64,000 nucleotides of DNA from an uncultured Clostridia bacterium (GTDB lineage: Bacteria > Bacillota > Clostridia > Christensenellales > UBA1242): NCBI GenBank assembly GCA_944383915.1, contig CALWRJ010000010.1, positions 73,178-137,177 on the forward strand, in the 5' to 3' direction. The notes beneath the pieces are model-generated. The model had not been told where the DNA came from and ran no database searches. It was given only the letters and a program-made list of their open reading frames with translations. The position numbers and the translations under genes are program-made. This document shows, piece after piece, positions 60,129 to 62,942 of this stretch. Numbering within the stretch: the first letter of the stretch is position 1; each line of letters begins with the position of its first letter.

Positions 60129-60446
60129 TTAGAGTAGGGTGTCTAAATCGGCTCTGTATTTTTTTAAATCAACGCGCCCGCGCCAAATTTCGACTCCCTC
60201 GGCTAATAATTTTTTAGCCTGCATATTTGAGCCACCAAACGCATAGTTTGGCGCAAGACGACCAGCACTATTTACGACCCTATGACACGGAATATTTATA
60301 GGGTCTGTGTTTGAGTGTAGCGCGTTTCCAACCGCACGCGCACCGCCATTCACTCCAACCGCGCGCGCAATGTCGCCATATGTCGAAACTTTGCCTTTTG
60401 GTATTTTTGCCACCACTTTAAAAACTCGTTCTCTAAAATTTTCCAT
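60129..60446 (-). CDS. MGMT-family protein (methylated-DNA-protein-cysteine methyltransferase DNA-binding domain only)
   Basis: IPKGKVSTYGDIA...IPCHRVV with the PCHR active-site motif. ATG at 60446 preferred over the listed TTG at 60461. No clear RBS for either. Confidence 0.8.
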   Translation of the reverse strand: MENFRERVFKVVAKIPKGKVSTYGDIARAVGVNGGARAVGNALHSNTDPINIPCHRVVNSAGRLAPNYAFGGSNMQAKKLLAEGVEIWRGRVDLKKYRADLDTLL

Positions 60447-60466
60447 AGTAAGAGTATACAATAAAA

Positions 60467-61082
60467 ATTAGGAATTAGCAAGCAACTCGCTATGCGAGAA
60501 TTAGCAATTAGCAGGTAGCAATTAGCAGTCTTACTCGCTACGCTCAAATTAGCAATTAGCAATCTTACTTGCTTCGCAAGAATTAGCAATGAGCAATTAG
60601 CAATTAGCAGTTGTTGTGCGCGTGCGCGCAAGCATATGTGCGTAGCGCAATTTTGAATTTTGAATTTTGAATTATTGCAGGAATATCTAATAATTTTTTG
60701 CTCTTTTTAAACCATTTGCAAATTTTAGAACATTTGTTCGTTGGTACAAATAAAGTATTAACTTATAAATTAAGCACATTAAAACCTATGTTAATTAATA
60801 AATTAATTATAGTACTATGAGAGTTTTACTCTCATGATATTTCCTTGATTTTTAGTGGTAGTACTTTTAATTGTTGTTTGTTATAAAGCTATGAGAGTTT
60901 TACTCTCATCGCTATAAGTTAAATTAGGAATTAGTAATTAGGAATTTTGGTCGCTGACGCTCGAATTTTGAATTTTGAATTAGGAATTATGGCTAGAAAA
61001 TATTTAAAAATATTTTTAAATGCTTGCGCGCACGCGCACAACAACTGCTAATTGCTAATTGCTAATTCGCAACGAAGTTGCG
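60467..61082. repeat. mosaic repeat island D, left part
   Basis: Hairpins CTCGC-TAT-GCGAG (60486), CTTGC-TTC-GCAAG (60568) and CGCAAC-GAA-GTTGCG (61068). Also (AATTAGC)n arrays, GC module at 60611-60648, (GAATTTT)n at 60650 and 60964, two copies of ctatgagagttttactctcat at 60816 and 60889, and (GCTAATT)3 at 61046. Confidence 0.9.
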
Positions 61083-61110
61083 GAAAGCGCAGCCGAAAGG
61101 CGAAGCGTAA

Positions 61111-61209
61111 AAAAACAACCTAAAAACAACCGAAATTCAACCGAAAAACAACCTAAAAACAACCCAAATTCAACCCAAAAACAACCCAAAAACAACCCAA
61201 AAACAACCA
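61111..61209. repeat. tandem array, 9 x 11 nt (AAAWWCAACCN)
   Basis: Units counted base by base: aaaaacaacct, aaaaacaaccg, aaattcaaccg, and so on. Confidence 0.9.
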
Positions 61210-61463
61210 ATTGAAAATGAAATCGTGATCGTAAACGGAAATTCCGAACGATAAAAAAAATAAAAACTTTCTCTCTTTCTATGGCTTGTTGGGTGGCGAT
61301 AAAATGCTAATCTAATATTTATAATAATTTTAAATTTTAGTGGTGATAAAAACTTGTTAAAACAGTTTTAATGGATTTCATTTATATCACTTTTTAGAAA
61401 TATAATTCTAAATTTTTCGTCTATGAATGAATGGCTTTAATATAATCTAAATCACTTACAAAA

Positions 61464-61595
61464 AACCAAGAAAATAACCAAGAATAAAACCAGCAACATA
61501 ACCAGAGAAACAACCAGAGAAACAACCAAGAAAACAACCAGAGAAACAACCAAGAAAACAACCAGAAAAACAACCAGAGAAACAACCAGAAAAAC
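61464..61595. repeat. tandem array, 11 x 12 nt (AACCAGAGAAAC-like)
   Basis: Units counted base by base. Followed by a GGAAA-rich run and a ~60-bp tail shared with the 61111 array. Confidence 0.9.
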
Positions 61596-61740
61596 AACCA
61601 AAGGAAAAGGGAAACGGAAAGGAAAACGGAAACGGAAATTCCGAACGATAAATAAATAAAAACTTTCTCTCTTTCTATGCTTTGCGGTGGGGGAGAATAA
61701 AAAATCTTGTACAACAACATAATTATTACTCGCTACGCTC

Positions 61741-61855
61741 GAATTTTGAATTTTGAATTAGGAATTAAGGCTGAAATTATTAAATATAATATAATTTTAT
61801 ACTCATCCTTAACTGCTAATTGCTACCTGCTAATTGCTAATTCTCGCAAAGCGAG
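61741..61855. repeat. mosaic element copy (GAATTTT array - AAGGCTGAAAT core - GCTAATT array - CTCGC-AAA-GCGAG hairpin)
   Basis: The core aaggctgaaattattaaatataatataattttatactca is nearly identical to 46161-46199. Confidence 0.85.
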
Positions 61856-61874
61856 CAAACCGAATGGCTCAGCG

Positions 61875-62942
61875 TTAAGCAAAGTTTTCTAGTTTTAATC
61901 TTACTTCCTCTTTGTGTAGGGCATCGAGCATTTCGTCAATGTCGCCCTGCATAAAGTTGTTTATCGAGTGTAGACTCAAGCCTATTCTGTGGTCGGTAAC
62001 GCGGTCTTGCGGGAAGTTGTAAGTGCGAATGCGTTCACTTCTATCCCCAGTGCCTACTTGACTTTTTCGCTGTTGTGCGTTTTCATTAATTGCTTTTTGA
62101 CGCGCCATATCCTCTAGTTTTGCGCGCAAAATTTTCATCGCGCGGTCTTTATTTTTAATTTGACTTCGCTCGTCTTGGCAAGTTACGACAATTCCAGTTG
62201 GCAAGTGCGTTATGCGAATGGCGGAGTCGGTCGTGTTAACCCCTTGTCCACCGTGCCCGCCTGCGCGGTATGTGTCGATGCGCAAATCTTTGTCGTTAAT
62301 ATCAACATCGCTTTCCTCGACTTCAGGTAAAACTGCCACGGTAACGGTGCTTGTATGCACGCGCCCTTGCGATTCGGTCTCTGGCACTCGTTGAACGCGA
62401 TGCACACCGCTTTCCCATTTAAGAGCGCGGTAAGCCCCAACACCATCGACAAGCATTACGCCTTCTTTAAGTCCGCCAACTTCAGTTTCGCTGTACTCAA
62501 TAACCTCAACTTTCCACCCTTTTTTATCAGCATAACGGCGGTACATATTAAATAATTCCGCGCCAAAAAGCGATGCTTCATCACCACCAGCGGCTGGCCT
62601 AACTTCGATATAAACACTGTTGTCATCGTTCTTATCTTTCGGCAAAAGCATTATTCTAGCCTCGTCCTCAAGCCTTTCAATTTCCGCGCTCGCCTCGTCC
62701 TTTTCGACTTGCGCCATCTCGCTCAATTCAGCGTCCGTACTTTCCCCTAAAACAGCAACCGCCGAATCCAGTTTTGCCTTCGCCTTCTCGTATTTTTCGT
62801 ACAAATCATTGTATTCGCTAAGTGCAGAATGTTCTTTTGCGATTTTTGTGTATTGCGCTAAATCGGCAATAACATTAGGGTCGCACATTTTTTCGCCTAA
62901 CTCTTTGTATTTTTGTACGAATGGTAAAATTTTTTCAATCAT
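61875..62942 (-). CDS. prfA: peptide chain release factor 1
   Basis: PxT-type domain and RAGGHGGQGVNTTDSAIRITHLPTG GGQ motif. 355 aa. Confidence 0.95.
   Translation of the reverse strand: MIEKILPFVQKYKELGEKMCDPNVIADLAQYTKIAKEHSALSEYNDLYEKYEKAKAKLDSAVAVLGESTDAELSEMAQVEKDEASAEIERLEDEARIMLLPKDKNDDNSVYIEVRPAAGGDEASLFGAELFNMYRRYADKKGWKVEVIEYSETEVGGLKEGVMLVDGVGAYRALKWESGVHRVQRVPETESQGRVHTSTVTVAVLPEVEESDVDINDKDLRIDTYRAGGHGGQGVNTTDSAIRITHLPTGIVVTCQDERSQIKNKDRAMKILRAKLEDMARQKAINENAQQRKSQVGTGDRSERIRTYNFPQDRVTDHRIGLSLHSINNFMQGDIDEMLDALHKEEVRLKLENFA

Follow-up and report, generated by a model that had tools for sequence, protein, structure and literature searches.

The DNA analysed here, referred to as the window, is the 64,000-nucleotide stretch at positions 73,178 to 137,177 of contig C10 of genome G000 (1.18 Mb, 23 contigs). 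Both of the repeat cassettes described below lie in one gene-free mosaic repeat island of the window (60462-61874), bordered by a 110-aa MGMT-like ORF (60129-60461, minus strand) and by prfA (61875-62942, minus strand), which is followed by prmC, also on the minus strand. The island is crowded with AATTAGC/AATTTTG heptamer arrays and small GC hairpins, as detected by TRF. Array 1 with its tail is denoted W1 and array 2 with its tail is denoted W2. The features of the island, with the evidence for each in brackets, are as follows.

60462-61874, no strand: gene-free mosaic repeat island, 1.4 kb (ORF list; TRF heptamer and hairpin repeats; sequence)
61111-61209, plus strand: W1 iteron-like array, nine units AAAAACAACCN / AAATTCAACCN, AACC every 11 nt (TRF; regular expression)
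61210-61252, plus strand: W1 proximal tail, degenerate GAAA-type repeats and an inverted repeat (sequence; inverted-repeat search)
61250-61296, plus strand: W1 A/T-rich run GATAAAAAAAATAAAAAC and distal tail CTTTCTCTCTTTCTATGGCTTGTTGGGTGG (alignments)
61297-61459, no strand: spacer between W1 and W2, 163 bp, 19.6% G+C (composition; blastn)
61464-61599, plus strand: W2 iteron-like array, 12 AACC cores at exactly 12 nt (TRF; regular expression)
61600-61643, plus strand: W2 GGAAA/GAAACG hexamer repeats with the palindrome CGGAAATTCCG at their end, 61633-61643 (TRF; inverted-repeat search; alignment with the C2 gene)
61644-61694, plus strand: W2 A/T-rich run AACGATAAATAAATAAAAAC and distal tail (alignment)

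A whole-genome search with regular expressions revealed AACC at exactly 11-nt spacing nine times in succession (window 61117-61208) and at exactly 12-nt spacing twelve times (window 61464-61599). TRF reports a period of 11 over 61111-61208 (8.9 copies, 87% matches) and a period-33 super-repeat over array 1 (3.0 copies, 92%), confirming the nine 11-nt units that a sequence-only reading of the window had described. For array 2, TRF reports 11.8 copies of period 12 over 61460-61601; the 12-nt period given in that reading stands, and its count of eleven units is corrected to twelve by the regular expression. The first four units of array 2 diverge in their non-core bases, and the last eight are of the (A/G)AAACAACCAGAG/AAGA type. 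The window contains 6 runs of four AACC spaced at 11 nt, where 100 shuffles give an expectation of 0.00.

The tail reported to follow each array is borne out by alignment, the two copies being ~90% identical and alignable from AAACGGAAATTCCGAACGAT through GGTGG, and the palindrome CGGAAATTCCG is present in both (61236-61246 in W1, 61633-61643 in W2). In W1 this palindrome forms the core of a longer inverted repeat, ATCGT-AAA-CGGAA-A-TTCCG-A-ACGAT; in W2 it is preceded by a period-6 repeat (AAACGG, 5.5 copies, 61600-61638, TRF). Each cassette thus has a direct-repeat array adjoining an A/T-rich run, with nine units leading through the inverted repeat to GATAAAAAAAATAAAAAC in W1 and twelve units leading through it to GATAAATAAATAAAAAC in W2. 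In the window, array 1 is open only as a 51-codon frame without gene context. The spacer has no second copy in G000 by blastn against the genome, and W1 has no blastn match in the phage database.

A scan of the whole genome identified a third array with its tail at C2:18718-18881, 83% identical to W1 and 79% identical to W2. This copy is in frame within an intact ORF of 422 aa (C2:17949-19217) that has a good ribosome-binding site, AAAAGGAG, and an N-terminal DUF6291 domain (Pfam PF19808, 7e-11). The array encodes ...EQKQPKNNPNSTQKQPKNNPKTIQ... and the tail encodes ...KTETEIPNDKKNNIFYL..., running into the C-terminal domain, and the two together form the inter-domain linker, which is predicted to be disordered. 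The earlier view that coding is excluded by a period of 11 nt is therefore wrong: three units make 33 nt, or 11 codons, and the homologous C2 array is translated as KQPKNNPNSTQ... within a gene. The absence of par or rep genes noted earlier holds for the window, but a gene of the cognate type is present on another contig, at the C2 locus just described. Relative to the C2 copy, W1 carries a recent 33-nt duplication, and neither W1 nor W2 has kept intact the A/T palindrome AAAATAATATTTT seen in the gene copies. Contig C2 is ordinary chromosome (dnaG, rpoD, tex, dut) in which the DUF6291 gene is solitary; a mosaic island precedes it. The C2 protein has an extra low-complexity insert of ~150 aa between the GGAPKGNKNAQK motif and the array (422 aa, versus 241-278 aa in its relatives), and two of the seven units of its array are mutated to CAATCC.

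Homology of W1 and W2 to genes stops near TTTCTAT. The distal tail beyond is common only to W1, W2 and the first 64 nt of contig C22, which are 100% identical to window 61657-61720. This fourth copy lies at the very start of C22, its distal tail cut by the contig end; C22:1-93 corresponds to the W2 tail with adjoining island sequence, identical over 93 nt, beyond which it departs from the window sequence through related island modules. At least one further orphan cassette, with its array unassembled, is probably present at the C22 start. The search of the genome and its relatives for the tail and arrays that the sequence-only reading had proposed thus yields other copies (C2, C22 and genes of relatives), but W1 and W2 were not found in the 16 same-genus genomes searched. 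The two cassettes resemble mosaic intergenic repeat islands (REP/BIME-like) in being embedded in one and seemingly duplicated with island modules; they differ from the heptamer and hairpin modules in that they can be traced to a protein-coding gene family. In the related genome G012, an MGMT-like gene (G012:C10:4809-5144, L085) lies between homologs of G000:C10:204.7-206.1 kb and 206.7-207.0 kb; the slot between these segments in G000 is a mosaic-island module, and the MGMT-like gene is now found beside the W1/W2 island. Mosaic islands appear to mediate such gene relocation.

DUF6291 homologs are present in 14 of the 201 genomes of the family, a distribution that fits a mobile gene. Two genomes of the same genus, G012 and G010, encode homologs of 266-274 aa in which the elements are ordered as in the C2 gene: the DUF6291 domain, ending in GGAPKGNxNAQK, is followed by the ACAACC array, GAAACG repeats, an inverted repeat, an A/T run and the C-domain from IFYLS onward. 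The G012 gene lies inside an insertion of ~25 kb that adjoins tig and is absent from G000. This insertion also carries a large serine recombinase, a CI-like S24/HTH repressor, a Cro-like gene, a DUF3846 gene and an XRE gene, and is the early region of a temperate element. We considered whether W1 and W2 mark the site of a decayed integrated element of this kind and rejected it, as the G012 element adjoins tig and the homologous site in G000 lies elsewhere on the contig.

Across the 201 family genomes, all A-rich ACAACC arrays are located directly after a DUF6291 domain, with the exception of W1, W2 and one orphan in genome G112. About 20 DUF6291 genes, compared as DNA or protein, have an AACC array after the domain, with spacing mostly of 10-11 nt, followed by an A/T-rich hexamer tract, and in ~50 protein clusters a K/Q/P/N/T signature follows a GGAPKGN or GGRPK motif. 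An inverted-repeat search found an inverted repeat of 5-8 bp at the position of the proximal tail in every family member. The core differs by class, being AAACC in GGRPK-class genes (L088 4001-4765, L089 4000-4860) and CAACC in the GGAPKGN class; the repeat core may covary with the AT-hook-like motif at the end of the DUF6291 domain. Two of the DUF6291 matches, G192:C7:1356-1751 and G103:C12:6319-6711 (L011, L012), each contain one in-frame TGA, which may be a stop ahead of the true start or a case of recoding.

The most serious alternative to a role of the AACC arrays as DNA is that they have no such role anywhere: they would be slippage-prone sequence coding for a tolerant linker of K, N, Q, P and T, and W1 and W2 would be pseudogene scraps of it, duplicated as the island modules were shuffled. 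We regard this reading as possible but unlikely. The linker is predicted to be disordered (AlphaFold gives confident N- and C-domains, with pLDDT values under 50 at residues 80-134), the island is pieced together from repeats, the orphans are species-specific when compared with the 16 same-genus genomes, and the 33-nt duplication in W1 is recent. In-frame arrays of 12 nt also occur in genes: three genes of the C2 subfamily (L076, L077, L079), with units AACCAAGA / AAAACCAGTG, have 12-nt arrays in constant frame, as does W2, so that helical phasing near 10.5 bp is not universal, and these 12-nt arrays could be ordinary coding repeats.

Against this reading, genes of different genera keep array periods of 10-11 nt within their coding sequence, and the core occurs in every reading frame. 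Nine genes, drawn from at least six genera, place CAACC in frames 0, 1 and 2 in nearly equal numbers (22, 23 and 21), and 49 of the 57 spacings are 10 or 11 nt, with a further 6 of 20-23 nt; the A-tract preceding CAACC is conserved, and the base that follows it is unconstrained. As a period not divisible by three has been kept in the coding sequence of several genera, the constraint would lie on the DNA and not on the peptide. The GGRPK-class genes L088 and L089, on phage contigs of 36-37 kb, have ten AACC at exactly 11 nt with the other seven bases differing from unit to unit, which argues that the regularity does not derive from recent slippage. Unit number is also stable among close relatives: it does not change among 21 near-identical protein clusters, whereas the length of the DIDMD (GATATN) hexamer tract beside the array does. 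Closely matching DUF6291 proteins recovered from many metagenomes (P0012-P0032) differ in size by steps of 2 aa, all of them within this DIDMD tract. Taken together, the sequence comparisons point to an AACC array that is constrained as DNA rather than as protein.

The gene-less copies also bear on the reading of W1 and W2 as scraps. W1 and W2 hold linker DNA only and neither protein domain of the DUF6291 genes; a tblastn search of the island with ten family proteins, at an E limit of up to 50, matched only the array and tail and no domain remnant. At the 80% identity seen in the tails, domain sequence duplicated together with them would remain detectable. A second, independent orphan is present in another genus, at G112:C42:13939-14008 (L054, about 1020-1340). 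This gene-less copy has nine AACC units at 10-11 nt followed by a (GTAAAT)n tract of ~270 bp; it starts exactly at the first unit and ends where the globular C-domain would begin. In an intact DUF6291 gene of the same genome (G112:C40), the (GTAAAT)n tract encodes NVNVN, and the junction sequence is identical to that of the orphan. The G112 orphan lies 2.5 kb upstream of a gene for a sigma-like regulator and a large terminase gene. That two independent orphans, in G000 and G112, keep precisely the linker and no flanking domain sequence makes random pseudogene decay hard to uphold.

The genes to whose linker DNA these cassettes are homologous have the character of replication-module genes. A C-terminal DnaB_2/DnaD domain was found in three of the five class-wide homologs scanned (5e-15 to 2e-14), with a fourth below threshold, and the C-domains of class-wide homologs match phage genes annotated as 'DNA replication protein'. 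In G112, a G39P-type helicase loader (PF11417, 2.5e-8) is encoded downstream of the DUF6291 gene. The DUF6291 gene follows CI/Cro-type genes in temperate elements and SSB, ERCC4, RecT or YqaJ genes in phage contigs. Fold matches of the predicted structure in BFVD are mostly to other DUF6291 proteins and to phage proteins described as 'replisome organizer' or 'DnaD domain' (E ~1e-3). A Foldseek search against the PDB returned no match to the N-domain fold at E<1; the PDB thus lends no independent support to a DNA-binding fold, so that DNA binding by DUF6291 is putative. Our literature search found no paper mentioning DUF6291. By their domain fusions, gene neighbours and fold matches, DUF6291 proteins look like phage-type replisome organizers.

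Based on these observations, we read W1 and W2, with a probability of roughly 0.6, as detached copies of the linker DNA of DUF6291 organizer genes, DNA that in phage-like elements is most likely a replication origin. At the level of sequence, it is evident both that W1 and W2 are homologous to the linker of the genes and that the AACC phasing is conserved as DNA. By analogy with the phage systems below, the cassette would be an origin or an initiator-binding site, and the orphans W1 and W2 may still be bound by an initiator. In the proposed origin, the phased array of AACC-core iterons would be the initiator-binding part, the GAAACG repeats and inverted repeat after the iterons would be the second part, and the A/T-rich stretch would be the third, the region to be melted. 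W1 and W2 would represent a tandem pair of such cassettes placed in a recombination-prone mosaic island of the host chromosome. The C2 DUF6291 protein, whose own gene contains a closely related cassette, would be the natural candidate to bind both. As the pair is not conserved in sister species, its cellular effect is probably small. Of the options raised by the sequence-only reading, protein-binding iterons or an origin-like relic is the one favoured by the evidence, to which the homology to the array-plus-A/T segment within DUF6291 genes is now added.

This arrangement has counterparts in known phages. In phage lambda, the segment of the O gene that codes for a flexible inter-domain linker contains the iterons and, after them, an A/T-rich region with a palindrome, and the origin has four iterons of 19 bp; we know of no orphan copies of the lambda origin. 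The DUF6291 cassette shares with lambda O/ori its layout and its place in the linker-coding part of a gene, here that of a putative initiator, and differs in having 5-12 short AACC units at 11 bp in place of four 19-bp iterons.

[quoted passage not shown] Like oriL, the gene-borne DUF6291 cassettes combine direct repeats with a putative A/T-rich unwinding region within a gene of the organizer type; oriR is a second copy of the repeats elsewhere without the gene, as W1 and W2 are, and a G39P-type helicase loader is found beside the organizer gene in the relative G112. In contrast to SPP1, the N-domain of the putative organizer here is DUF6291, which is not known to be related to gp38, and W1 and W2 are a tandem pair with periods of 11 and 12 nt, located in the host chromosome outside any recognisable phage. 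ORF13 of TP901-1 and Rep2009 of Tuc2009 bind repeats in their own genes, which serve as origin, and origin repeats of the lactococcal P335 group cloned in trans on multicopy plasmids give the PER ('phage-encoded resistance') phenotype (PMC8965321). The likeness to these temperate phages of Firmicutes would be a repeat-rich origin inside the cognate organizer gene, and a detached copy of the origin has a known effect there, titrating replication factors. The repeat sequence and the protein family are different, and PER is obtained via multicopy plasmids and not from single chromosomal copies.

The lactococcal precedent raises the idea that W1 and W2 are kept as origin decoys or initiator traps that bind an incoming phage's AACC-reading DUF6291 organizer, or the resident C2 protein, and thereby titrate phage replication or fire abortively, amounting to a natural chromosomal PER. 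We consider this very unlikely. A maintained function of W1 and W2 is argued against by their absence from 16 same-genus genomes, by the shuffling of modules and by the loss of the AAAATAATATTTT palindrome, and the absence from these genomes together with the shuffled-module island fits young, unselected debris equally well.

The sequence-only reading had also raised a partition site. A plasmid-type centromere resembling parC, in which phased iterons are bound by a ParR-like adaptor, is highly improbable here. The cassettes do share with ParR-parC centromeres short direct repeats of 10-12 bp on one strand, phased at about one helical turn. However, no copy has a par operon beside it (the neighbours in the window are the MGMT-like ORF, prfA, prmC and addAB-side genes), and the association across genomes is with DUF6291 genes. 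The gene-borne copies lie inside the coding sequence of replication-module genes, near SSB, RecT, helicase-loader and repressor genes.

An even smaller likelihood is given to the other option raised earlier, a non-coding RNA that contains the repeats and might, for instance, act as a sponge for an RNA-binding protein. Many identical short motifs on one purine-rich strand would suit such an RNA, and minus-strand read-through from prfA is possible, as no canonical terminator follows that gene. However, nothing relevant was found in Rfam (gathering thresholds over the whole window; E<=10 over 60400-61950), promoter-like sites are at shuffle expectation, and of three weak terminator-like matches one, on the minus strand, lies inside the cassettes and none frames a transcript over the array. 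The homologs are all inside protein-coding sequence, and the cassette is not conserved at the locus in relatives. Equally implausible is the proposal that the arrays are contingency (phase-variation) repeats, in which gain or loss of 11 nt shifts the frame of the organizer gene and the orphans are by-products: 11 is not a multiple of three and stand-alone DUF6291 proteins of 89-94 aa do exist, but the unit number is constant in the 21 near-identical clusters, the units of L088 and L089 are too dissimilar for slippage, and the gene-less copies are left unexplained.

On contig C10 (214 kb), the maximum of the cumulative GC skew coincides exactly with the cassettes, and the orientation of the genes changes at the same place. 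A replication terminus or fork trap at this position was nevertheless rejected, as the strand-corrected GC3 skew shows no clean sign flip: separated by strand, it is 0.1-0.3 up to 120 kb, about 0 to -0.08 at 120-172 kb and 0.2 beyond. A search with a dif consensus found no dif-like site. The segment of near-zero skew corresponds to ~47-64 kb of the window and the sequence beyond it, and at 172-214 kb the minus strand carries nearly all of the genes even though it is the plus strand that is G3-rich. This pattern of skew and gene strand suggests past inversions or acquired segments in C10.

Under the preferred reading of W1 and W2 as detached copies of organizer-gene linker DNA, a puzzling pair of non-coding repeats is explained, and, for annotation, tandem arrays with periods not divisible by three can be inside real genes. 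The design of an origin within the initiator gene, with a detached copy, is already established in SPP1, lambda and lactococcal phages, so the gain is incremental unless the orphans act as decoys; if they did, they would extend PER, so far known only from cloned lactococcal phage origins. What the cassettes probably represent is a known origin design in the uncharacterised family DUF6291, and not a new kind of element. The family thereby gains a concrete candidate role: its members would act as phage replisome organizers, with binding sites (AACC every 11 bp) and an unwinding region both contained in the DNA that codes for their own linker, a cassette that is also found without its gene in two genera.
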